From contig JBAZNV010000001.1 of assembly GCA_041649045.1 (NCBI GenBank), positions 286,728 through 350,727 of the forward strand: a stretch of 64,000 nucleotides of DNA, written 5' to 3'. Within the stretch, counting starts at the first letter, position 1. Every line of letters starts with the position of its first letter. Below the pieces are notes generated by a model. That model was not told the origin of the DNA. It made no database searches and saw only the letters and a list, made by a program, of their open reading frames with translations. Source of the DNA: Candidatus Pacearchaeota archaeon. Its GTDB lineage: Archaea > Nanobdellota > Nanobdellia > Pacearchaeales > GW2011-AR1. Positions 3,295 through 50,328 of the stretch are shown in pieces. The position numbers and the translations under genes were made by a program.

Positions 3295-3686
3295 TGACAA
3301 AACAATTAGATATAGAAACAAATAATTTAATAGAAGAAGTTAGGGAGGTCCTTTCTCCGTGTATAAAATGCGGCATGTGTAAATCATTATGCCCGGTATT
3401 CAAATCATTGCGTGAAGAAAGTGTTTCGCCGAGAGGAAAAGCAATTCTTTTGTCGGAAAAAACTTTGGATAAAATAGTGTTCCAGTGCAATTTATGCAAA
3501 GCCTGTGAAGAAAAATGCCCGTTAAATTTGAAAATTTGTGAAGCCATTAGGAAAGCGAGAGAGGCAATGGTTTTGAGTAAAAAAGAGTTAAAAGAAAATA
3601 AAGAAATGATCGAGAACATTAGGAATACAGGAAACCCATTTGGAAAAAATACAATCAAAGAAGACGGAAAGTTATATTGTTGTTAA
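3294..3686 (+). CDS. 2x[4Fe-4S] ferredoxin-like protein (GlcF-like N-terminal region)
   Basis: Two CxxCxxCxxxCP motifs (CIKCGMCKSLCP, CNLCKACEEKCP). Start overlaps the stop of the HD gene. Confidence 0.55.
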   Translation: MTKQLDIETNNLIEEVREVLSPCIKCGMCKSLCPVFKSLREESVSPRGKAILLSEKTLDKIVFQCNLCKACEEKCPLNLKICEAIRKAREAMVLSKKELKENKEMIENIRNTGNPFGKNTIKEDGKLYCC

Positions 3687-5368
3687 AAATGAGTAAACCA
3701 AAACTCCAATCTATCCTTGTCTTTTTTGTGCAATCTTACAAATCCAAACCTCTCAAACTGAATCACATCTCCCACTTTGAGTTTTTTTGTTTCAGGTTCA
3801 CTTAATCCTTTTGTCCAACTTCCGTCTGGCATGAAAATTTCAGTTTGTATATTTTCTTGATTTGAAGGAAGCCACTGTAAAAACTTAGTTTTCATATCGT
3901 TTATAGGTTCTTCTGAAATAAATGAATTTTCTCTTCTTTTCAGGGTTAAAATCCATTCTGATTTAAAAGTCAATAAATGCATCAGACGATAATTTCCATC
4001 CTGCATCATTTCAAGATCATTATTTGAAATTAAAAATTTTTGCGACGTCTTATATCTCCTAAATCCTTTTTCTTTGCTTGGGTGAAGTGGAATATTTGCT
4101 GTTAGTTCTGGGCATCCGCTTATTTTTATTTCTTGGGGATTTTCAACAAAAAAATATCTTGGAACATCTTCGAGAAATTTTCTATTCAAAGCGTATAAAA
4201 CTTCAATCGGGATTTTTACGTTTGATTTATTTATCCCTGCATTTACGATAAATTGCCTTATGGCTTCGGGCCTTATCCCTCTGTCTCTTAACGATTGAAT
4301 GCTCCATGTTCTTGGGTCATTCCATCCGATATATTCCCCTGAATGAACCTCCTTCGAGCTCTTGGATTTTGAAAGTTTCGTTCCTTCTATTCCAAGGTGT
4401 CCGTTGTAAATACTTTCAGGATTTTTCCATCCAAAAATATTTCTTATAAAATCCTGAATTCTCGTTGACATTTGATGTTCAATTCCTCTTAAAACATGTG
4501 TGGTCCCAAAAATAAAATCGTCAATCGCCCATGAAAATTCCATTGATGGATAAATTCTATATTTGTTTTTTGTTCGCGGATGAACCCTGTCCGAAATTTT
4601 CAACATAACTCTGTCTCTAAATGCAGGATCTGGGTCTTGCATTGAAGTTTTAATTCGAACGCTCATTGAACCTGCAGGGGCCTTGAACATTTTTTCCCAT
4701 CTTTCAATTTGTTCTTGCGGCGAAAATTGACGACAAGAACACTCGACGCCTTTTGCTCGCAATTCCTGCATTTCTTTTTGATTGCAATCACATACATACA
4801 TGTACCCCTTTTTTATAAGTTCTTTCGCATAATCATAATATTTTTCTATCCTATCAGATTTGTAAATAATTTTATCATAATTCACATTCAAAAATTTTAT
4901 TCCCTCTTCAATCAGTTTATAGGCTTCGGGCTCGATCGGTTTTTCAACGGATCCGATTGTATCATCCATCACGAGCAACAATTTCCCATCATACATTTTT
5001 ACATACTCGTCATTTAAAATCAAAGTTCTGGCATTGCCGATATGCAACGGTCCCGATGGAAATGGCGCCATTCTCATCACAACTTTTCCTTTTTCGGCAT
5101 TCGGGAGCTCGGGCAAACCTTCGCGAACCTCACGTTTGCTTATTTTATGAGTTGACTTTTCAAGTTGTTTTTTTTGTTCATCAATAGAAAGAGAATTTAT
5201 TTCCTTGATAATTTCATTTATTTTTGGCATATAATTTTTAATTTCTGACTTTTCAAGTCCTTCGGCAAAAAGTCCCGAAAGAACAGAAGAAGGATTGGCT
5301 TTGCCCTTATATCTCAAGGCATTCTCAAGAGCATAAACTTTTATTACTTCATTGGATATATCTACCAT
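3683..5368 (-). CDS. gltX: glutamyl-tRNA synthetase, archaeal/eukaryal type
   Basis: Class I HIGN motif (PSGPLHIGNARTLILNDEY), KLSKSK motif, and ~560 aa length typical of archaeal GluRS. Confidence 0.85.
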   Translation of the reverse strand: MVDISNEVIKVYALENALRYKGKANPSSVLSGLFAEGLEKSEIKNYMPKINEIIKEINSLSIDEQKKQLEKSTHKISKREVREGLPELPNAEKGKVVMRMAPFPSGPLHIGNARTLILNDEYVKMYDGKLLLVMDDTIGSVEKPIEPEAYKLIEEGIKFLNVNYDKIIYKSDRIEKYYDYAKELIKKGYMYVCDCNQKEMQELRAKGVECSCRQFSPQEQIERWEKMFKAPAGSMSVRIKTSMQDPDPAFRDRVMLKISDRVHPRTKNKYRIYPSMEFSWAIDDFIFGTTHVLRGIEHQMSTRIQDFIRNIFGWKNPESIYNGHLGIEGTKLSKSKSSKEVHSGEYIGWNDPRTWSIQSLRDRGIRPEAIRQFIVNAGINKSNVKIPIEVLYALNRKFLEDVPRYFFVENPQEIKISGCPELTANIPLHPSKEKGFRRYKTSQKFLISNNDLEMMQDGNYRLMHLLTFKSEWILTLKRRENSFISEEPINDMKTKFLQWLPSNQENIQTEIFMPDGSWTKGLSEPETKKLKVGDVIQFERFGFVRLHKKDKDRLEFWFTHF

Positions 5369-5458
5369 AAAAAATTAAAGAAGCCAGAGATTTTAAAGTT
5401 TACTTAACAACTCAGGACACATCGTCAATATTATCTAAAAGTCTACTCGTCCTTGTAT

Positions 5459-5827
5459 TTACCACCCAATCAGATTATTTTCAGGATAACTGGGTTGGTT
5501 GACTCCAGTCTTTTTTTCAAGAAGTTCTATTCTTTGTTCTAACTTATAAATTTTATTGTCAAGTTCTGTAATTTTTTCGTCAACTTCTCTTTTATTATAT
5601 CCTTCCAATTCAGTTGAAAATTGTTTCTTTTCTCCGAGAGTTTTTGCTCCGTAAAAAAAATCTGTTTTGCTTTGTCCTGTTTTTTTCGAGGCAATCGCGT
5701 TACTTCTTACATCAACAAATCCGTCGTCATTTGTCGGCACAACACTGTCATTTTTAGAGATTCTTACGATTCCTCTTTTCTGCAAATCCCTGACATCTAC
5801 CATCCCTTTTTTCTTTTTGAATAACAT
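5459..5827 (-). CDS. hypothetical coiled-coil protein
   Basis: 122-aa ORF with a C-terminal coiled-coil (ITELDNKIYKLEQRIELLEKK). Confidence 0.3.
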   Translation of the reverse strand: MLFKKKKGMVDVRDLQKRGIVRISKNDSVVPTNDDGFVDVRSNAIASKKTGQSKTDFFYGAKTLGEKKQFSTELEGYNKREVDEKITELDNKIYKLEQRIELLEKKTGVNQPSYPENNLIGW

Positions 5828-5907
5828 ATAAAAATAAAGAAGAAGCTTTATTTAAAGCTTAGGGGACCCTTACAAAAATTTATATATTCATTCTTACAAT
5901 TAGAAAG

Positions 5908-7470
5908 ATGGCAGATTTCAAGAGCGTGATTTCAAAAATAATGACTGATTCAAAATCTCCTGAGCAGTTGGATAAAATGGCAATGTGGGATATTGAGAAG
6001 AAAAAGTTCAAGCCCGCGACTTCTTATAAAATGACTTTTGATTCTCAGCAGGCGCAACTTGAACCAATTTATTTTTGGTTGCTTGATTTCATGCAGGATA
6101 CGGGATGGGAATCAAAAAAAATTACTGATAATTTCATGTCAAGTCCAGGTTCGGGACACTTTGCGGAAATGGGGCAAAGAGCAACACGAATGCAAGAAGA
6201 GGGAATGAAAATTTTAGGCGGATTAAATCAAGTTATAAAGTCTTCTTTGAATTTAATATACGACCTGAAAGAATTTGAATTGAGACTTGCGCATTACGAC
6301 GATGCTAACTCGAAAGACAAAGAAAAATTTGAAACCGGAATGCTCGCATTAAAACAAATCTGGCTGGACAATGTTGATTTGAAAAGAGGGCGGGGCTCGA
6401 TTCATCAGATGGCCGCAGAGCTCGGGTATACTACGATAAGAGAAGCTTTTATGATGGCGAATTCATTAGAAGATTTAAAAAAAATGAATAGCGATAAAGA
6501 TGGCGGACTTATAAACGACCAAGTCATGAGAATTTTGATTCCGCGCCTTGATGAATTTTTGAAGTGGAAAGTGTATTCTGAGAAAGAACTTAGAAAAAGA
6601 ATGAATATCGAGAAAAACTATTTAAGAAGCCAAATTGAGACGATAAAACTTTATTCAGCATGGATGAAGCCATATCTGAAAGCTGCAGAAGAGTTGACAC
6701 AAAAAGGTTTTGAAGGCAACGCGGCTCTTGTGAATGCATTTAGTACTTCAATGTTTGAACTCACTTTATATGGGAAAAAGGAAGAAAAAGTTCCGAAAAA
6801 TTTTTCTAATTATAATATGAAAAGAAAATATTATTCTTTTATTATAATAAGTTTGGTATATAGGGGACACGTTTCTCAGCGAGTCACGCAAAAAGGTGAC
6901 TACGCGTTTAGCATGGGTGGAAGAGTGGATATGACTTTTGATTCGTATTCTTTAAATGAAGAAGAACTGAAATTAATAGAAAAAGAGTATACTAAGGAAG
7001 AAGTTTCTGATAACATGAATTTTTCAATGAAGTTGGCCGAAGAATCATTAAAAGAATTAAAGGAAGATTTGGATCATTTTTTAAAAAGCGACGAAGAGAA
7101 AAAGAAAGAAGAAGAGAGAGTGTCTGAGAAGAAGAGAGAAGAAGAGAAAAAAAACAACGTCAATCCATTTTCGGCCCTGTTTGGAATTTTTAAAATAAAA
7201 AAAGAAGAGAAAAAAGATAAAGATGGGAAAAAAATTATCGAGTCGCCAAAGGATATTCAACCAGATAATTATATTGAAAATACGGTCAGAGCTAACGCAA
7301 TAAATTCAGGTGCTGCGGGGCTGTATTCTATTTATGATATATACAAAAAAGCTCACGGATTGGCCTCTGCCCCAAGTGTGGGATTTAAAAATCTTGATAG
7401 TGCGCCAAAACAATCGGAAGTTAAGCTTAAAGATGTTTTCAAAGGTGATTTCGGAAAAATAAAAGAATAA
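5908..7470 (+). CDS. hypothetical protein with K/E-rich low-complexity C-terminal region
   Basis: 520-aa ORF with clean flanks. No recognisable catalytic motif. Contains an EEKKKEEERVSEKKREEEKK stretch. Confidence 0.4.
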   Translation: MADFKSVISKIMTDSKSPEQLDKMAMWDIEKKKFKPATSYKMTFDSQQAQLEPIYFWLLDFMQDTGWESKKITDNFMSSPGSGHFAEMGQRATRMQEEGMKILGGLNQVIKSSLNLIYDLKEFELRLAHYDDANSKDKEKFETGMLALKQIWLDNVDLKRGRGSIHQMAAELGYTTIREAFMMANSLEDLKKMNSDKDGGLINDQVMRILIPRLDEFLKWKVYSEKELRKRMNIEKNYLRSQIETIKLYSAWMKPYLKAAEELTQKGFEGNAALVNAFSTSMFELTLYGKKEEKVPKNFSNYNMKRKYYSFIIISLVYRGHVSQRVTQKGDYAFSMGGRVDMTFDSYSLNEEELKLIEKEYTKEEVSDNMNFSMKLAEESLKELKEDLDHFLKSDEEKKKEEERVSEKKREEEKKNNVNPFSALFGIFKIKKEEKKDKDGKKIIESPKDIQPDNYIENTVRANAINSGAAGLYSIYDIYKKAHGLASAPSVGFKNLDSAPKQSEVKLKDVFKGDFGKIKE

Positions 7471-7658
7471 TACTAATTTCTTAAAAAAATTCCATTATTT
7501 TTCTTATTATATCTCCGGTAAAAAAAGTTTTTAAAAATCCCGGACTAACAGAAGTCGCCCCAACTCCTTCAGAATATTCATAGGCTCCGATATCCCAACC
7601 ATCTCCCTGAGGTCGAGGTTTTCCTTCTATATCTACACTAAGATTGACTCCAAACTCA

Positions 7659-8804
7659 TTATAATATCTGTCCATTATTTCCTGAACAGTCCCTGTCTAC
7701 TATCGAGTAAGTCCCGGCACAATCCGATGACAACTGGGCATCGACAAAAATAACATCGTCGCTGACTTCGGCGCATTCTCCGTCGCTGCAATAATATCCG
7801 CTCCCGCAACTCCCGCAACTCCCTCCGCATCCGTCGCTGCCGCAAATTTTTCCGGAACAGTTTGGCTCGCAAATTTCTGTCACGACACACTCTCCGTTCT
7901 CGCAGCTCCCATCGGTGCAACTCTCTCCGTCGCTGACATTAACATCCGTCGGGCAATCAATATTCCCATCAGTGCAAACTTCCGCTGCGTCGCATTCTCC
8001 TGAAGATGCCCTGCAAACTTCGCCGGCACTGTAATTCACCGAACAATTTCCCGACGTGGAATTGCAAAAGCCGGCACCGCAATCTCCTGTCAGATAACTG
8101 CAATCCGAATCATTCAAGCATGAAGGCAAAACAACACAAGCATTTCCCGAGCACGTTTCTCCGTCGCCGCAGCTCCCGCAGTTTAAAATATTCGAACATC
8201 CGTCGGATAGTCCGCTCCCGCACTGATTCAAACCATAATAATATTCACAGTTTCTCGTCGCTGAACACGAACCCCCTCCGGAGCCGCCTCCGCCTGATCC
8301 TCCCGAACTTCCGCCAGAACTTCCCCCACCGCTCTTCGGAGGAACGTAATCTTTCTCGTTTTCTCCCAGATCAACCTTCTTTACATTCTCGATTTTCAAC
8401 TCGCTGATAACATTCCCTCTCTTTCCGTTCCTGAAAACCGGCACAAGTTTTATGACTTCAAGCTCGCCCGAATTTTCGCTCAGATTAAGATAGTAAACTT
8501 TTTGCTCGTTCGTCTCCGGAGTGTCATTCACAAAATTTGTCACGCTCTCCTCGCTGAAAACAAAAATCAAGTCAAACCCGACGACATCAGCCTCGTCTTC
8601 CCCTCGTTTCACCTGCACCTCCGCGAGCTTGTGCTCCGCATCCCAAACCGTGTACCCGTCGACAATGCTCAAATCCACGATCTGATTTATCTGCGAATCC
8701 ATTATCATCGGCAAAACAAAAATCCACAAAACCGAAACCACGACGATAGTTATCAAAATAATCAGAACTGCCGCGACGACACTCGACACCCCATCTTTTC
8801 GCAT
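7659..8804 (-). CDS. membrane-anchored cysteine-rich surface protein with poly-Gly/Ser linker
   Basis: N-terminal charged residues followed by a ~25-residue hydrophobic segment (pilin/signal-anchor-like). Contains a GGGSSGGSSGGSGGGGSGGGS linker. About 40 Cys in repeated CxxGxC-type spacing. Local GC is elevated by Cys/Gly codons. Confidence 0.5.
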   Translation of the reverse strand: MRKDGVSSVVAAVLIILITIVVVSVLWIFVLPMIMDSQINQIVDLSIVDGYTVWDAEHKLAEVQVKRGEDEADVVGFDLIFVFSEESVTNFVNDTPETNEQKVYYLNLSENSGELEVIKLVPVFRNGKRGNVISELKIENVKKVDLGENEKDYVPPKSGGGSSGGSSGGSGGGGSGGGSCSATRNCEYYYGLNQCGSGLSDGCSNILNCGSCGDGETCSGNACVVLPSCLNDSDCSYLTGDCGAGFCNSTSGNCSVNYSAGEVCRASSGECDAAEVCTDGNIDCPTDVNVSDGESCTDGSCENGECVVTEICEPNCSGKICGSDGCGGSCGSCGSGYYCSDGECAEVSDDVIFVDAQLSSDCAGTYSIVDRDCSGNNGQIL

Positions 8805-35057: not shown

Positions 35058-36101
35058 ATGGTGATTGAAAAAGAAAAAAGTTTCTTTGATTTTATAAAAT
35101 TAGTGTCACCAGGGATGCCATTAAGAACGGTTGTCAACGATCTTGTTGAATCGGGACTGGGCGCAATAATTGTTTTTGATTCTCCAGAACTTCATGAACA
35201 AAATCTTTTTGAAGGTGGATTTAGAATTAATTGCAGGTTTACTCAACAAAAACTGTTTGAACTCTGTAAAATGGATGGGGGGATTATTGTTTCTACGGAT
35301 TTGAGCAGGATACTTTATGCAAATGTCTTGATGACGCCCGATAATTCACTTCATACCCACGAAACCGGGACCAGGCACAAGGCAGCCGAAAGGATTGCGA
35401 AACAAGCAAAAACTTTTGTGATAGCTGTTTCGGAAAGAAAAAGAAAAACTACATTGTATTACTCAAAAACAAGATACTATCTAAAAACCGTCGATGAATT
35501 AATTAGAGGAATTAGTTCCATACTTCAGGTGCTTGAAAAACAAAGAGAAATTTTCGATGATCTTCTGAATAATCTTAACATACTTGAAATGTCAGAACTC
35601 GTTTCTGTAAGCGATGTTTGCAAGGTCATACAAAGAGCCGAAATGATCCTGAAAATTTCCGACACAATAAAAAAGAATTTTACAGAACTTGGGAAAGAAG
35701 GAAGTATTATGCAGATGAGGTACCGTGAACTCGTTCGGGGAATTGAAAAAATTGAGAACGAAGTTTTAAGAGATTATTCTATAATTTCCCTAAAAAAATC
35801 GACGACACTTTTATCGAACCTTACTTATGACGGGCTGCTGGATATCGAATCAATTTCAAGATTAATCATAGAAAAGCCTTTGGAAGAAAGCATTTCGCCG
35901 AAAGGTTTTAGGTTTTTGTCGCACTTGACTCTTGCAGAAAAAGAAATTTCTCAAATCGTAAAACAATTCGGAAACTTAAGAAATATCTTGATAAGCGACT
36001 CCTCGAATTTCGAAAATATTCTTAAAGGTCGTGCAAGCAAAATGAAAGAAGAAATTTTGAATTTGAAAGAACAAGTTTTGAGTGGGAAGGTGGTTTGCTA
36101 A
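35058..36101 (+). CDS. dacZ: diadenylate cyclase (DAC domain; archaeal DacZ-like)
   Basis: DAC motifs DGGIIV (DGA-like) and HETGTRHKAAERIAKQAKTFVIAVSE (the GTRHRAA..vSEE signature). Confidence 0.75.
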   Translation: MVIEKEKSFFDFIKLVSPGMPLRTVVNDLVESGLGAIIVFDSPELHEQNLFEGGFRINCRFTQQKLFELCKMDGGIIVSTDLSRILYANVLMTPDNSLHTHETGTRHKAAERIAKQAKTFVIAVSERKRKTTLYYSKTRYYLKTVDELIRGISSILQVLEKQREIFDDLLNNLNILEMSELVSVSDVCKVIQRAEMILKISDTIKKNFTELGKEGSIMQMRYRELVRGIEKIENEVLRDYSIISLKKSTTLLSNLTYDGLLDIESISRLIIEKPLEESISPKGFRFLSHLTLAEKEISQIVKQFGNLRNILISDSSNFENILKGRASKMKEEILNLKEQVLSGKVVC

Positions 36102-43523: not shown

Positions 43524-43871
43524 TTAGTATCTGCCTCGACCGCCACCAAATCCGCCGCCTCTGTTACCGCCACCAAATCCGCCTCGGTTTCCACCGAAAC
43601 TTCGTCTTGGTCTGTCGTCACTCGAACGAGCTTCCATTGGTTTTGCTTCAGAAACTTTAAGTTTTCGACCATCGACTTCTTTATCATTAAACTCTGAAAT
43701 AGCTTTTTGAGCTTCATTGTCATCTGAAATTGTTACGAAACCGAAACCTTTTGATCTGCCAGAAAATTTGTCTTTGATAAGACTAACTTCATCAACTGTA
43801 AATGAAGAAAACAAATCTTTCAATCCATTCTCATCAATACTCCAAGGCAAGTTACCTACGTATATCTTCAT
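43524..43871 (-). CDS. RRM-domain RNA-binding protein with RGG-rich C-terminal tail
   Basis: RNP2 IYVGNL and RNP1 KGFGFVT motifs. C-terminal GGNRGGFGGGNRGGGFGGGRGRY. Confidence 0.7.
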   Translation of the reverse strand: MKIYVGNLPWSIDENGLKDLFSSFTVDEVSLIKDKFSGRSKGFGFVTISDDNEAQKAISEFNDKEVDGRKLKVSEAKPMEARSSDDRPRRSFGGNRGGFGGGNRGGGFGGGRGRY

Positions 43872-45743: not shown

Positions 45744-48700
45744 TTACTCCCAATAAATTCCTGCTTTTCCCGGCTTGGCTCTTTTTGAATGATTTTCAGG
45801 GTCGTGTTTTTCTGAATCATTTACTGCGTATACCTTGACATTTTTTCCAAGCTCTTTTGAAATTTTTTTTGCGTCCACTTGAGCTATTTCGAATGGCATT
45901 ATGTAAACAAAAACCTCCCTTGGGGTTTCATTCGTTTTTCCAAGCTGATACCTTATATCTTCAATTATTTTTTTATTTAAATCTTCTTTGGATTCTTTTT
46001 GTTTAATTTTTATTTCAGCTGGTTTTGGCCATTCGCTATTTGAAATGAAATTTTTATTTCCGAGTTTTGACCAAAGTTCTTCGGTGATGTGAGGGCAGAT
46101 TGGATTTAGAATTTCTAAAAACTTCTCAAGCGAATCTTTAGATGCCCCATTCTTCTCAATCAAATCAAAAAGCTCGCGGATTTCTATTGTCGCTTTTCTG
46201 TATTCAAAATTTTCATAGTATATCGTTATGTTTTTTATTGTTTTGTTTAATTTTATTTTTAATTCATTTGAATCTTCTATGAATTTTAAATTTTCAAAAT
46301 AACCGAACAATCTTTTTACAAATCTCATACTTCCATTAATACCATTTTCATCCCAGTCTATATCTTTATCAGGCGAAGCAAGTCCTGACATGAAAAACCT
46401 CGCAGTATCAATACCATATTTGTCAGAAACAACTTCGGGCAACACGACATTTCCCTTAGATTTTGACATTTTTTCTCCGCCTTCTGCTCTTAACATTCCC
46501 TGATGGAAAAGTCTTTTCGCGGGTTCTCTGAAATCTATCAATCCCAAATCAGCGAGGAATTTTGTATAAAATCTTACATAAATTAAATGCATGCAAGCGT
46601 GTTCCGCGCCGCCGATGTAAGTATCAATTGGACACCAGTATTTTACTTTGTCGCTGTCAAATATTTTTTTATTATTTTTCGGGTCGCAATATCTCATAAA
46701 ATACCACGACGAATTTACGAAGGTATCCATCGTATCAGTCTCTCTCTTTGCATCGCCGCCACATTTAGGACATTTTGCATTTACCCATTTTTCATTTGTT
46801 TCAAGCGGGTTTCCTTTGCCGAATTTTACATCTTTTGGAAGTTCAATTGGCAAATCTTTTTCTGGGACAGGAACGACACCACACTTTTCGCAATGAATAA
46901 CAGGAATCGGAGTTCCCCAATATCTCTGACGAGAAATAAGCCAATCACGAAGACGGAAATTCACAACTTTTCGGGCAACACCTTTGGAAATAAGCCAATC
47001 AGGAATTTTTACTAAGGCTTCTTCGGTTGGTATACCATTAAAAGAAATTTCATTAGTTTCGCTATCGACTAACTCTCCTGCACCAGTATAGGCTTCTTTT
47101 TTATTGTAAATTTGGTCCGCGACTAATTCATCTTTTGGGGCAGGTGGTGCAATCACCTGATTTATAGGTATACCATACTTTTTAGCAAACTCGAAATCTC
47201 TCTGATCGTGAGCAGGAACCGCCATGACCATTCCACTACCATAATCTGCTACAACAAAATTTCCTGCATAGACCGGAACCTTCTCTCCCGTCGCTGGATT
47301 GATCGCATACGAACCTGTAAAAACGCCTTCCTTATCCAAATCCTCAACTTCTTTCATCGTCTTCTGCGAAACGCCGCCAATCTTTTTCAAAAAAGCATCA
47401 ACATCTTTCTTCTGTTCTTTTGTCACAAGTTCGTTTAATCTTGTATGCTGCGCCGACACAACCACAAAAGTCACACCAAAAATCGTGTCCGGTCTTGTCG
47501 TAAAGATCGACCAAGGTTTTTTCGACAAACAAGCTTGTAAAATTTCGGGTTCTTCAATCGAATTAAAATGAGGAGATTTTGCAATAGTTGTAATAAGCTT
47601 TGCAGAAAGTTTATCGGCGATCTCTCTTCCCATTTCAACTCTTAGAAGGTGATCTTTTTCGTCTATCAAAACTATAATTTCCTCTGCATGTTTTTTAACT
47701 TCTTCAAAATTAAATTTCCAATCACAACAGTTATCAATTGCAGGTCTACTTTTTCCATCTTTTGCTTTGCTCATAGAAGGAGTTGCAACTAAGATTAATT
47801 TCTTTATTTTCGTTTTTAGTTTAGACAATAATTTAAGGGCAAGGACTCCGCCTAAAGAGTGAGTTACTATTATGGATCTTTCATTAAAGTTATATTTTTT
47901 TATAACAAATTCAACTTGTTCTTCAATATTCGGTTCAGAAGGATTGGGAAGATCAGGTGCAAAGCAAACCTTACCTCCGTTTTCTTCTATTTTTTTTGTA
48001 AGCCATGGCCAAAAAACACTTTTTGAGTTATCCTTATATGCATGAAAAAAAACAAATTCTGAATTTTTTATCTCTTCAGGGTTAACAATTTCAAACTCAA
48101 TTTCCGTTCCGTGACTTTTTCCAATCCAGTTTTTTTGCATAGCTTTCGTTCGTGCGGGCCAGTTCAAATTATCAATTTCTTCGTAAAGCTCGTCGGCGTA
48201 ATCTGTGATTTTCAAATACCACTGTTTGAGGTGTTTTATTTCAACGTCTGTCTTGTCGTGAATCCAGCATTTCCCATTAACGACTTGTTCATTGGCGAGC
48301 ACGCTTTCGCATTTTGGACACCAATTTACAGCCGAAGTTTTTTGATAAGCCAAACCCTTTTCAAACATTTTCAAAAAAATCCACTGGTCCCATCTATAAA
48401 AAAATGGATCCGCTGAAGAAAGTGTTCTGGACCAATCATAAGAAAGTCCGATTGCCTTTTGTTGTTTAACGAAATTAGTGATTGATTTGTCGGTATAATC
48501 TTTTGGATGAATACCAACCTTTATTGCCGCATTTTCTGCCGGCAGACCCAATGCGTCATATCCCATCGGATGAAGAACGTTGTAGCCGTTCATGATTTTG
48601 AATCTTGCGATAATGTCGCCAATCGTATAATTCCATGCGTGCCCCATGTGAAGCCCGGACCCCGACGGATAAGGGAACATCTCAAGAACGTAATATTTCG

Positions 48701-48794
48701 GTTTCTTACTTTTTTCGCTTACCTCAAAAATTTTCTCTCTTTCCCATGCATCCTGCCATTTCTTTTCGATCTCTTTGAAGTTTATTTCGGTCAT
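45744..48794 (-). CDS. leuS: leucyl-tRNA synthetase, bacterial type, with an inserted alpha/beta serine-hydrolase domain
   Basis: HMGH (PYPSGSGLHMGHAWNYTIGD), KMSKS (KMSKSKGN), and CP1 editing domain (TTRPDTIFG). 1016 aa, about 180 aa longer than typical. Confidence 0.9.
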   Translation of the reverse strand: MTEINFKEIEKKWQDAWEREKIFEVSEKSKKPKYYVLEMFPYPSGSGLHMGHAWNYTIGDIIARFKIMNGYNVLHPMGYDALGLPAENAAIKVGIHPKDYTDKSITNFVKQQKAIGLSYDWSRTLSSADPFFYRWDQWIFLKMFEKGLAYQKTSAVNWCPKCESVLANEQVVNGKCWIHDKTDVEIKHLKQWYLKITDYADELYEEIDNLNWPARTKAMQKNWIGKSHGTEIEFEIVNPEEIKNSEFVFFHAYKDNSKSVFWPWLTKKIEENGGKVCFAPDLPNPSEPNIEEQVEFVIKKYNFNERSIIVTHSLGGVLALKLLSKLKTKIKKLILVATPSMSKAKDGKSRPAIDNCCDWKFNFEEVKKHAEEIIVLIDEKDHLLRVEMGREIADKLSAKLITTIAKSPHFNSIEEPEILQACLSKKPWSIFTTRPDTIFGVTFVVVSAQHTRLNELVTKEQKKDVDAFLKKIGGVSQKTMKEVEDLDKEGVFTGSYAINPATGEKVPVYAGNFVVADYGSGMVMAVPAHDQRDFEFAKKYGIPINQVIAPPAPKDELVADQIYNKKEAYTGAGELVDSETNEISFNGIPTEEALVKIPDWLISKGVARKVVNFRLRDWLISRQRYWGTPIPVIHCEKCGVVPVPEKDLPIELPKDVKFGKGNPLETNEKWVNAKCPKCGGDAKRETDTMDTFVNSSWYFMRYCDPKNNKKIFDSDKVKYWCPIDTYIGGAEHACMHLIYVRFYTKFLADLGLIDFREPAKRLFHQGMLRAEGGEKMSKSKGNVVLPEVVSDKYGIDTARFFMSGLASPDKDIDWDENGINGSMRFVKRLFGYFENLKFIEDSNELKIKLNKTIKNITIYYENFEYRKATIEIRELFDLIEKNGASKDSLEKFLEILNPICPHITEELWSKLGNKNFISNSEWPKPAEIKIKQKESKEDLNKKIIEDIRYQLGKTNETPREVFVYIMPFEIAQVDAKKISKELGKNVKVYAVNDSEKHDPENHSKRAKPGKAGIYWE

Positions 48795-49447
48795 ACTCCT
48801 TGTTCCTCGATTTTTTTTCTTAGAAAATCTAATTCATCATATTGTTCTTTAAATGGAACGAATACGCCAATTTGATATTCTATTATCGGGGAACCTTGCG
48901 GAAAATTTCTAAATCCAATCGCATGAGGGTTCCCAAAATTTATAGAATTATCAAATGTAAAATCAAATCTTCTATGGGGTAAACTTTTATCGCCTCTTTC
49001 TAATCTACGCAAATATTCCTGTTGAGAAAGAGTCAATCTTTTGTAGCCATGAGTTATAATCGGGTTTTCCCCTATGCTCACAGCTTCTAAACTTGTCAAT
49101 CCTGGGAACCATTCTCCATCTACATTCGAACCAATTGCTACATATAATTCTGCTTCTCCAACCTTTTTTCTCGGCGTCCACTTAGAATCAATTTCACTAA
49201 TAACATAATCATCGTTGTTTCCAGTAGCATCATCTGGACTAAAAAGAATAGCAACAGCTTCTCCTGCTCCCTGAGTTCTTTTGGAGCAAAATAACCTAAA
49301 ATCCATTCTGGCAGTATAACCCTTTTCGGGAGTTTCTTGAAATATTCCTAAAGAGGCGATTGACCAAAGATAATCCAACTCCCTAGATAAATTATTAAAT
49401 CTTTCAACGACTCTTCTGCTTGCCTGTTCATAATCTATTTCTTCCAT
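48791..49447 (-). CDS. hypothetical protein
   Basis: 218-aa ORF whose stop overlaps the leuS start. Confidence 0.35.
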   Translation of the reverse strand: MEEIDYEQASRRVVERFNNLSRELDYLWSIASLGIFQETPEKGYTARMDFRLFCSKRTQGAGEAVAILFSPDDATGNNDDYVISEIDSKWTPRKKVGEAELYVAIGSNVDGEWFPGLTSLEAVSIGENPIITHGYKRLTLSQQEYLRRLERGDKSLPHRRFDFTFDNSINFGNPHAIGFRNFPQGSPIIEYQIGVFVPFKEQYDELDFLRKKIEEQGV

Positions 49448-49450
49448 ATT

Positions 49451-49792
49451 TTATCCAATTGCCTCGACTTTTAAAATATTGTCATTATGACTATAAAATA
49501 CAACTTCACCATATTCAATGTGAGTGACATGCCTTCCTCGCTCGCCGTGGACATCAAATCCGTGGAATTTAAAGTAATTTGTCTCTACAGGGATCTCGAT
49601 ACTTCGACTAAACCCGTTAGAATTAAACTGCAAGCATTTCCCTGATATGTATCTTAAATACTTCGCTTCTGGATGTCGAGCAATCAGCTCTTTATTATTA
49701 ATTACACCCGAAGCTAACAATTCTAATTTTATTCCCACCTCCATAGAATTTAGTTCATCCCGAAGCGCTGTAAAAATGTTTATTGATTTCAT
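49451..49792 (-). CDS. hypothetical protein
   Basis: 113-aa ORF, 3 nt from the downstream gene. Confidence 0.3.
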   Translation of the reverse strand: MKSINIFTALRDELNSMEVGIKLELLASGVINNKELIARHPEAKYLRYISGKCLQFNSNGFSRSIEIPVETNYFKFHGFDVHGERGRHVTHIEYGEVVFYSHNDNILKVEAIG

Positions 49793-49908: not shown

Positions 49909-50328
49909 TTACTTTGCACGACCGAATTCTATTGATTCTTCTCTTCCTTTGTCGGTTAGAAAATATTCTAACTTTCCTTCTATTTTTTTGTATTTCATAA
50001 TAGATATCAATTTATCTCTATAAACTTCGAGCATCTTTTGGGTCACCAGTTTTGCATCTGGTAAAGATAATTGAAGTTTTTCTCTCGCAAGGTGAATCAT
50101 TGATAGGGAAGACCCTGGTGCCTCGCCATTCATATAGGCATCTTCTACCTTTCGATATAAATCGTTAACTATTTGGTCATTGACATCAAATTGCGGATTG
50201 GTTTCTTCTTTTCTTTTTTTCAAGACCCACGGGCTATCTACTACTGTCCCCATTTCAAGTCCTCCGCTTTGGAATCGAATTCTTTCAGCACATTTTGCTT
50301 GTTGGCCTGGGGTAAATCTTCTTGACAT
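49909..50328 (-). CDS. hypothetical protein with possible C-terminal winged-helix
   Basis: The ISIMKYKKIEGKLEYFLTDKGRE pattern is wHTH-like. Weak. Confidence 0.3.
   Translation of the reverse strand: MSRRFTPGQQAKCAERIRFQSGGLEMGTVVDSPWVLKKRKEETNPQFDVNDQIVNDLYRKVEDAYMNGEAPGSSLSMIHLAREKLQLSLPDAKLVTQKMLEVYRDKLISIMKYKKIEGKLEYFLTDKGREESIEFGRAK

Follow-up and report, generated by a model that had tools for sequence, protein, structure and literature searches.

A serine hydrolase domain nested within the CP1 editing domain of a Pacearchaeota leucyl-tRNA synthetase, and its recurrent association with leuS in DPANN archaea

The window considered here is a 64,000-nucleotide stretch of a Candidatus Pacearchaeota archaeon genome (GCA_041649045.1, contig JBAZNV010000001.1, positions 286,728 to 350,727), and all coordinates below are counted from its first letter. 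On its minus strand lies leuS, which encodes a leucyl-tRNA synthetase (LeuRS) of the bacterial type whose CP1 (connective peptide 1) editing domain contains a second, complete enzyme domain. The inserted segment is an independently folding serine hydrolase of the RBBP9/YdeN family whose Ser-Asp-His triad is intact. The case does not stand alone, as hydrolase inserts of this kind are common in the LeuRS proteins of Pacearchaeota, Woesearchaeota and Nanoarchaeota. The gene and its main features are as follows.

45744-48794, minus strand: leuS, bacterial-type leucyl-tRNA synthetase of 1016 residues with a nested hydrolase (open reading frame list, TIGR00396)
48639-48650, minus strand: HIGH signature of the synthetic site (HMGH, residues 49-52), placed by motif position and invariant in 50 aligned homologs
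48087-48110, minus strand: first beta-strand of the CP1 hairpin (GTEIEFEI, residues 229-236), which anchors the insert on its N side and corresponds to strand E226-237 of the full-length model
47517-48059, minus strand: nested RBBP9/YdeN-type serine hydrolase domain (residues 246-426), from PF06821, sequence matches, AlphaFold and Foldseek
48042-48044, minus strand: His251 after strand 1 of the hydrolase (FFHAY), conserved in 48 of 48 hydrolase domains
47856-47858, minus strand: Ser313, nucleophile in the elbow THSLGG, aligned with the Ser of YdeN HSLG and with RBBP9 Ser75
47712-47762, minus strand: clade-specific conserved loop KDGKSRPAIDNCCDWKF (residues 345-361), with D, RP and CCDW unchanged throughout the clade of the window's hydrolase
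47652-47654, minus strand: Asp381, triad acid (IDEKDH), aligned to the DD motif of YdeN and RBBP9
47568-47570, minus strand: His409, triad histidine (SPHF), aligned to the GHF of YdeN and RBBP9
47484-47501, minus strand: Thr-rich editing motif TTRPDT (residues 432-437) on the returning hairpin strand, placed by motif position
46992-47516, minus strand: remainder of the CP1 editing domain (residues 427-601), the best PF13603 stretch, profile positions 22-184
47196-47213, minus strand: editing-site motif AHDQRD (residues 528-533) with its conserved Asp, identical in insert-bearing and plain homologs
46458-46472, minus strand: KMSKS signature (residues 775-779), placed by motif position and conserved in the homolog alignment

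Coordinates 47517-48059 translate exactly to LeuRS residues 246-426. Searched on its own, this segment matches PF06821 (Ser_hydrolase) with 36.3 bits (E 6.9e-9, gathering score 22) and Abhydrolase_1 with 34.1 bits, and PF06821 is also detected in the whole protein with 31.8 bits. A sequence search of the PDB returns Bacillus subtilis YdeN (1uxo, E 2.8e-10) and human RBBP9 (2qs9, E 1.3e-7). An AlphaFold model of the domain, built from 45 homologous domains, is predicted with a mean local confidence (pLDDT) of 95.2 and a predicted template-modelling score (pTM) of 0.92, and describes a compact, lid-less alpha/beta hydrolase of roughly 190 residues. The best PDB matches of this model in Foldseek are RBBP9 (7oex, 2qs9, 9fcr) and YdeN (1uxo), with E about 1e-12 and TM 0.80-0.84, generic esterases being found far lower at E about 1e-6. 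Among the Pfam and NCBIfam families the insert matches alpha/beta-hydrolase families only, with no homology to YbaK/ProX (PF04073), AlaX/tRNA_SAD or DTD.

The three catalytic motifs, THSLGG (residues 311-316), IDEKDH (377-382) and SPHF (407-410), correspond in the alignments to the Ser, Asp and His that make up the YdeN and RBBP9 triads, in the order and spacing of that family. The sequence-only reading of this locus had proposed both this family and these motifs, and on each count it is borne out. Conservation was followed in a set of 48 domains, made up of 46 embedded hydrolases and two free homologs, whose identity to the window's hydrolase falls as low as 22%. The nucleophile position is Ser in 47 of these domains and Cys in one, the acid is Asp in 39, Glu in eight and Ser in one, and the triad His is present in all 48. 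Since the triad is kept over such distances, purifying selection acts on the catalytic function of the hydrolase. His251 probably occupies the oxyanion-hole position of the 'HG' type. The loop KDGKSRPAIDNCCDWKF aligns positionally with residues 99-120 of RBBP9, the region with which that enzyme binds its substrate, and any role of the loop here is putative. The correspondence of RBBP9 Glu108, Tyr99 and Ser76 to residues of the insert is ambiguous from sequence alignment alone.

In relatives that lack the insert, the corresponding region of LeuRS consists of two strands joined by a 4-residue turn, the second strand continuing into the Thr-rich editing motif. The window's enzyme has about 185 residues in place of this turn, namely VNPEEIKNSE, then the hydrolase and then SKKP, so that the junctions read FEI|VNPEE and LSKKP|WSIF. 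The spacing from NWIG to TTR is accordingly 198-238 residues in insert-bearing proteins compared with 23 in plain LeuRS. TTRPDT begins five residues beyond Lys426, the last residue assigned to the insert, and eight beyond the last helix of the hydrolase. The earlier placement of the insert just ahead of TTRPDT holds, whereas its placement before CP1 does not: the insertion maps to the tip of the hairpin inside PF13603, at profile position about 21. The PF13603 model starts upstream of that point, so the hydrolase is nested in CP1, a domain that in its turn is inserted into the Rossmann fold. The anchor lies about 7 residues from the Thr-rich motif, which at about 3.4 Å per residue is estimated from the sequence to be about 25 Å along the strand, the domain itself measuring about 40 Å. 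By this estimate the hydrolase would be within reach of the editing-site region.

The host enzyme is intact. It scores 883.5 bits against TIGR00396, the bacterial-type LeuRS model (curated equivalog cutoff 548.4 bits), and carries the Pfam domains tRNA-synt_1, Anticodon_1 and the editing domain PF13603, the last with 188 bits. The full-length AlphaFold model has a pLDDT of 87.4 (85-95 in the insert region) and a pTM of 0.73, and Foldseek ranks the LeuRS structures of Thermus thermophilus, Neisseria gonorrhoeae and Escherichia coli at the top (1h3n, 6q8b and 4aq7, E 1e-67 to 1e-75, TM 0.72-0.81 on target). Since the HIGH, KMSKS and CP1 motifs are all retained, the protein has three potential catalytic centres. 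It was considered whether the hydrolase might stand in for a degenerate CP1, but this was rejected because TTRPDT and AHDQRD are equally conserved in insert-bearing and plain homologs, TTRPDT being kept in 32 of 33 of the former and 64 of 72 of the latter that were scored.

The C-terminal third of the window's LeuRS (45744-46646, residues ~716-1016) also matches the archaeal-type models NF008957 and TIGR00395, in stretches between residues 716 and 1000, and is 38% identical to an archaeal-type LeuRS from another Pacearchaeota locus (L010, below). This recalls the haloarchaea, for which bacterial-type LeuRS with archaeal tRNA-binding C-termini have been published (PMC4005665). Three small open reading frames lie directly upstream of leuS on the minus strand (48791-49447, 49451-49792 and 49909-50328), the first overlapping the start of leuS by 4 nucleotides, and none of the three has a significant Pfam or PADLOC match. 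Membership of a defence system was likewise discarded, there being no PADLOC matches for the insert, the whole LeuRS or the upstream reading frame. Elsewhere in the window, the precomputed Pfam annotation of an identical ENA contig identifies a DisA-type diadenylate cyclase (DAC and DisA-linker, 35058-36101, plus strand) and a 115-residue RRM_1 protein (about 43524-43871), both of which are, to our knowledge, unusual in an archaeon.

An unusually long reading frame with an insert of lower GC content (0.315, compared with 0.379 for the rest of leuS) might in principle be an assembly chimera, a merger of genes by frameshift or an intein, and beyond these two properties nothing speaks for such an artefact. 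The window protein is NCBI MFA4960425.1 ('MAG: leucine--tRNA ligase [Candidatus Pacearchaeota archaeon]', on a 415-kb contig), and an identical protein with the same neighbours is found on a second public contig of 164 kb (ENA k141_1048273). The frame is a single one of 1016 residues, continuous through the insert as first described, and the same open frame recurs in dozens of diverged homologs from independent samples; chimera and merged genes were rejected on these grounds. The absence of intein features has stood up as well, as there is no intein or Hint Pfam match at E<=0.1, the junctions lack splicing residues and the segment has an alpha/beta hydrolase fold, within a full-length protein that is itself confidently predicted. 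The artefact explanation is thus already refuted for practical purposes and its probability is negligible.

The same insertion recurs in related genomes: 46 of the 120 most similar LeuRS proteins, at 56-70% identity, have a hydrolase at this hairpin. In what follows this hairpin is called site A, and a second position, after about position 150 of PF13603, site B. An unbiased scan of GTDB species representatives, with free-standing hydrolases and sub-clade alignments as queries, gave at least 568 relatives. The analysis took the best 80 loci, 29 from DPANN archaea (the radiation named after Diapherotrites, Parvarchaeota, Aenigmarchaeota, Nanoarchaeota and Nanohaloarchaeota) and 51 from the candidate phyla radiation (CPR) or other bacteria. 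Within this sample the hydrolase lies inside leuS or touches it in 20 of the 29 DPANN loci (14 at site A, two at site B and four adjacent only), and LeuRS is the host in all 16 embedded cases. None of the 51 bacterial loci shows linkage to leuS, and the free-standing hydrolases have no recurring neighbour other than LeuRS among the 80 loci.

Of the metagenome loci in the clade to which the window's hydrolase belongs, all 17 are linked to LeuRS, 15 by embedding and two with the hydrolase gene directly upstream. When the insert alone was used as the query, the only two close matches were free proteins of 196 and 198 residues (70% identity), which are encoded about 80 bp upstream of insert-free LeuRS genes whose products are 50% identical to that of the window. 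Both free proteins fall among the embedded domains on a neighbour-joining tree, where they are the sister group of the window's insert. In four loci (L011, L013, L020 and L072) a free hydrolase gene abuts the leuS stop codon, and in three (L010, L059 and L101) the hydrolase is directly upstream of a LeuRS of the archaeal type. A phmmer search spanning the junction, run against 1.84 billion representatives and tallied by the author among the matches listed, gave about 27 clusters (50% identity) with a match over the entire site-A junction, about 17 fragments at contig edges and about 27 clusters with LeuRS flanks in which the hydrolase lies elsewhere in the protein. From these gene arrangements it is well supported that the hydrolase is a dedicated partner of LeuRS in DPANN archaea, whether nested at one of several sites or neighbouring and even where leuS is of the archaeal type.

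Several individual loci deserve description. L010 (Pacearchaeota GCA_020049755.1, 3456-8337) is a tight operon of two hydrolase genes, a YbaK-like gene, Ham1 and LeuRS, the LeuRS being archaeal in type (TIGR00395, 784 bits) and the YbaK-like gene matching TIGR00011 weakly (44 bits against a cutoff of 153). In L056 (4224-6126) the LeuRS frame breaks a few codons past the hydrolase insert and resumes in another frame, a sign either of a frameshift introduced in sequencing or of a LeuRS that is split by nature. Free hydrolases elsewhere are found next to HIT or YjbQ genes or fused to NUDIX; in L009 (1771-2721, P0229) the fusion is a free-standing protein of 316 residues that joins Ser_hydrolase and NUDIX, the two commonest LeuRS guests. 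In L008 the gene of a free hydrolase shares 4 nucleotides with a gene that matches the HIT family weakly (3573-4567), and the same locus encodes a CDC48 ATPase with a true intein (5123-7930), so that classical inteins coexist with the non-splicing inserts.

The inserts do not simply follow their hosts. The LeuRS P0010 is 77% and 68% identical to that of the window in its N- and C-terminal parts, yet its insert is only 33% identical, whereas P0065 is 60% and 53% identical in the same parts with an insert that is 69% identical; on these figures the histories of host and guest disagree. Insert states are interleaved and extremely patchy on a tree of the LeuRS core, and leuS alleles that are 84-91% identical differ in the presence or type of guest, so the inserts behave as cassettes, exchanged and shuffled between leuS alleles. 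One such pair is formed by two syntenic loci, L093 and L094, whose flanks are 87-93% identical at the nucleotide level: one has a 184-residue hydrolase at site A where the other has the turn NKET, and their site-B guests are just 28-40% identical. The nucleotide identity of these two leuS genes is itself a mosaic, ranging from 0.77 to 1.00 per 40-codon block (codons 865-905 being flagged), which suggests frequent recombination within the gene. Recombination between leuS alleles would be the simplest mechanism for the exchange of cassettes. Around the window's insert, a search for terminal repeats and target-site duplications gave only short matches at chance level.

Other guests occupy the LeuRS relatives too. 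A NUDIX domain occurs at site B and Ham1 at the hairpin, a nucleotidyltransferase lies where CP1 ends, a GNAT domain is found together with the hydrolase at site A, and there are also inserts that match no recognised family. The hydrolase itself is further found at site B, right behind CP1 and directly ahead of the anticodon-binding domain. The Woesearchaeota locus L022 (CAZETU010000005.1, 4263-8288) has a single LeuRS frame of 1341 residues with two tandem hydrolases at the hairpin and a NUDIX domain at site B. In P0265 (NCBI MCX6741383.1, annotated as Candidatus Parcubacteria, partial) an IS200-like Y1 transposase domain (PF01797, residues 269-374) lies in frame at the hairpin site of LeuRS with the hydrolase further downstream, and this domain may be a clue to how guests enter.

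The reading that we favour is that the nested domain is a tethered alpha-aminoacyl (ester or amide) hydrolase dedicated to LeuRS. Aminoacyl esters on ribose are what LeuRS makes and edits. RBBP9 cleaves aminoacyl-aminomethylcoumarin (AMC) substrates and N-terminal residues with a strict need for a free alpha-amine (PMC8866121), and according to Shenoy 2020, as related in PMC7730578, it hydrolyses valacyclovir, the valyl ester of a nucleoside analogue. By analogy with RBBP9 the substrate would be alpha-aminoacyl. The hydrolase would remove aminoacyl species that are made by, or aimed at, LeuRS, its most likely targets being aminoacyl esters that CP1 leaves, such as unusual mis-acylated tRNA(Leu) 3' ends or aminoacyl-nucleoside compounds, and it would act in cis as an embedded domain and in trans as a separate operon product. 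Partnership with a synthetase is supported by the nesting of the same hydrolase family in two other editing synthetases, ValRS (P0317 and P0347) and AlaRS (P0333, where it separates the catalytic part from the editing part). A functional tie of any kind between the hydrolase and LeuRS is somewhat probable, and the full proposal, in which it clears the species that CP1 leaves, stands at about an even chance; that aminoacyl-tRNA in particular is the substrate is doubtful.

A number of observations weigh against this proposal. The CP1 motifs are intact, so a second deacylase acting on the same substrates would be redundant. The hydrolase occupies at least four different LeuRS positions, which argues against a precise geometry from one active site to the other, and enzymes as unrelated as NUDIX, Ham1, GNAT, a nucleotidyltransferase and the IS200-type transposase domain share the same LeuRS sites. 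The same hydrolase family is occasionally nested in UvrB (P0336), EngA (P0272) and SecA (P0296). Host domains flank the hydrolase on both sides in all of the non-LeuRS hosts except P0296, a SecA entry of 535 residues in which the SecA domain match lies only downstream; LeuRS is thus the dominant host but not the sole one. The hydrolase is free and unlinked to leuS in nine of the 29 DPANN loci, and free genes of this kind are common in CPR bacteria. Finally, adjacency to leuS may in part be left over from gene displacement and would to that extent not count as independent evidence. The additional deacylase role suggested by the sequence-only reading stays putative; it is strengthened by the recurrent linkage to LeuRS and weakened by the rare UvrB, EngA and SecA insertions.

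Variable nesting sites, unrelated co-guests and non-synthetase hosts keep two other explanations alive. The hydrolase may be an ordinary small esterase or aminopeptidase, unrelated in function to LeuRS, that is parked in the permissive loops of a large essential protein, an arrangement that in streamlined DPANN genomes would offer co-expression and stability through a constitutively expressed host. The presence of several unrelated 'house-cleaning' enzymes in the same loops, the further hosts UvrB, EngA and SecA, the abundance of unlinked CPR copies and the multiplicity of nesting positions, from which geometry seems unimportant, all fit such piggy-backing. It accounts less well for the overwhelming dominance of LeuRS as host (all embedded cases of the GTDB sample), for the exclusive LeuRS linkage of the window's clade, for non-embedded genes that stay beside leuS on either side, in three loci beside an archaeal-type leuS, and for the fact that the non-LeuRS hosts are mostly editing synthetases too; we regard it as rather unlikely. 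Alternatively, the insert may be a selfish or semi-selfish in-frame cassette, a mobile but non-splicing element, comparable in function to an intein or a Rickettsia palindromic element, that settles in the hairpin tips of essential proteins and passes from allele to allele by recombination, while what it catalyses is incidental to LeuRS. Extreme patchiness on the LeuRS tree, alleles 84-91% identical that differ in cargo (L093 and L094 differing at both sites), discordant host and insert identities, the essential nature of the hosts, the transposase domain of P0265 and the low GC of the insert would all be expected of such an element. Intein or Hint motifs, terminal repeats and target duplications are nevertheless absent, the window's insert has no endonuclease, and homologous recombination of leuS alleles explains the patchiness without any mobility encoded by the element. 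The triad is, moreover, strictly conserved in a clade seemingly confined to the inside or the vicinity of LeuRS, which implies selection on catalysis at the level of the host, and a selfish cassette is judged quite improbable.

A wider form of the same idea, that DPANN archaea and some CPR bacteria run a system of exchangeable in-frame enzyme cassettes in the hairpin tips of LeuRS and, rarely, of ValRS, AlaRS, UvrB, EngA or SecA, is in our view unlikely; such a system may be a modular quality-control or detoxification toolbox carried on the synthetase, or a new kind of non-splicing, intein-like mobile insertion with active enzymes. It may also be asked whether the hydrolase is linked to LeuRS through a different chemistry, either as an aminopeptidase that frees leucine from peptides scavenged by an auxotrophic symbiont or as an enzyme that repairs or detoxifies what aminoacyl-adenylate chemistry yields on the side, for instance N-epsilon-aminoacyl-lysine adducts or homocysteine thiolactone. 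LeuRS, IleRS and MetRS edit homocysteine to this thiolactone, which is a substrate of the valacyclovirase BPHL. This explanation draws on the same LeuRS linkage as the tethered aminoacyl hydrolase, the aminopeptidase activity of RBBP9 with its need for a free alpha-amine (PMC8866121) is in keeping with it, and tethering at variable positions fits a requirement for proximity only. Small molecules diffuse freely, however, so that tethering would be of little benefit for supply, no channel or pocket pointing to such a role is evident, and homocysteine editing is mainly a problem of MetRS, which is not among the hosts examined. We consider it highly improbable.

LeuRS is among the best-studied proofreading enzymes, and its CP1 domain is regarded purely as an inserted guest module. 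Here CP1 is the host of a second, mechanistically unrelated hydrolase with a covalent serine nucleophile, and the pairing has been maintained across an archaeal radiation in fused, split and operon forms, even after a swap of synthetase type. Should the hydrolase act on aminoacyl esters, it would represent an editing or detoxifying factor of a new class, active both in cis and in trans, and would give a physiological role to the widespread but functionally obscure YdeN/RBBP9 family. Should it not, the turnover of whole-domain cassettes in an essential gene would still be an unusual mode of protein evolution, and the insertion sites would provide natural examples of permissive positions for synthetase engineering. 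The earlier suggestion that the fusion was undescribed holds in so far as no description of the nested LeuRS-hydrolase architecture was found in the literature searched, but the proteins themselves are already in public databases with both Pfam domains precomputed, several of them being named by NCBI only as 'class I tRNA ligase family protein' or 'alpha/beta fold hydrolase'. The parts are thus known, whilst the nested architecture, its spread and its cassette dynamics appear to be undescribed. In a 2026 survey of domain insertions, PF13603 accounts for 213 events as the guest and for 'zero instances of host function' (PMC13114784).

Amongst known systems, RBBP9 and YdeN (PF06821; 2qs9, 7oex, 1uxo) are closest to the insert and share its fold, size and triad order. 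They are, however, only about 20% identical to it and are free proteins, whereas the insert is nested in another enzyme. Its substrate loop (KDG..RP..CCDWKF) is specific to its clade, and Glu108, which binds the amine in RBBP9, has no clear counterpart. The family NF040702 ('isoleucine--tRNA ligase, N-acetyltransferase domain-containing') is likewise a class Ia synthetase with an extra enzyme domain, although both the synthetase and the guest are different and the window's LeuRS scores only 95.8 bits against a cutoff of 1999. Inteins and the Rickettsia palindromic elements are in-frame insertions in essential proteins. The hydrolase inserts share with them a patchy, allele-level presence at conserved sites of such proteins, but they have neither a Hint fold nor splicing residues, as inteins do, and so remain in the mature protein; they also lack terminal repeats and consist of a conserved enzyme rather than a peptide spacer or homing endonuclease. 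Two further serine hydrolases, BPHL and MccF, the peptidase of microcin C resistance, release an alpha-amino acid from a leaving group that resembles a nucleoside or nucleotide. The insert is proposed to do likewise, the comparison being one of functional analogy only, with no sequence relationship claimed.

A further comparison is with CP1 itself and with the trans-editing deacylases (YbaK/ProXp of PF04073, AlaX and DTD), since the insert would likewise add a hydrolytic site, either in cis or from a neighbouring gene. CP1 and these deacylases are unrelated to it in fold and mechanism, the insert being an alpha/beta hydrolase with a covalent serine nucleophile, and its host retains an intact CP1 site. 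In the L010 operon the hydrolase is paired with a YbaK-like gene, and such a hydrolytic site, embedded or separately encoded, would mirror the cis/trans duality that is seen with INS and YbaK and with the AlaRS editing domain and AlaX.

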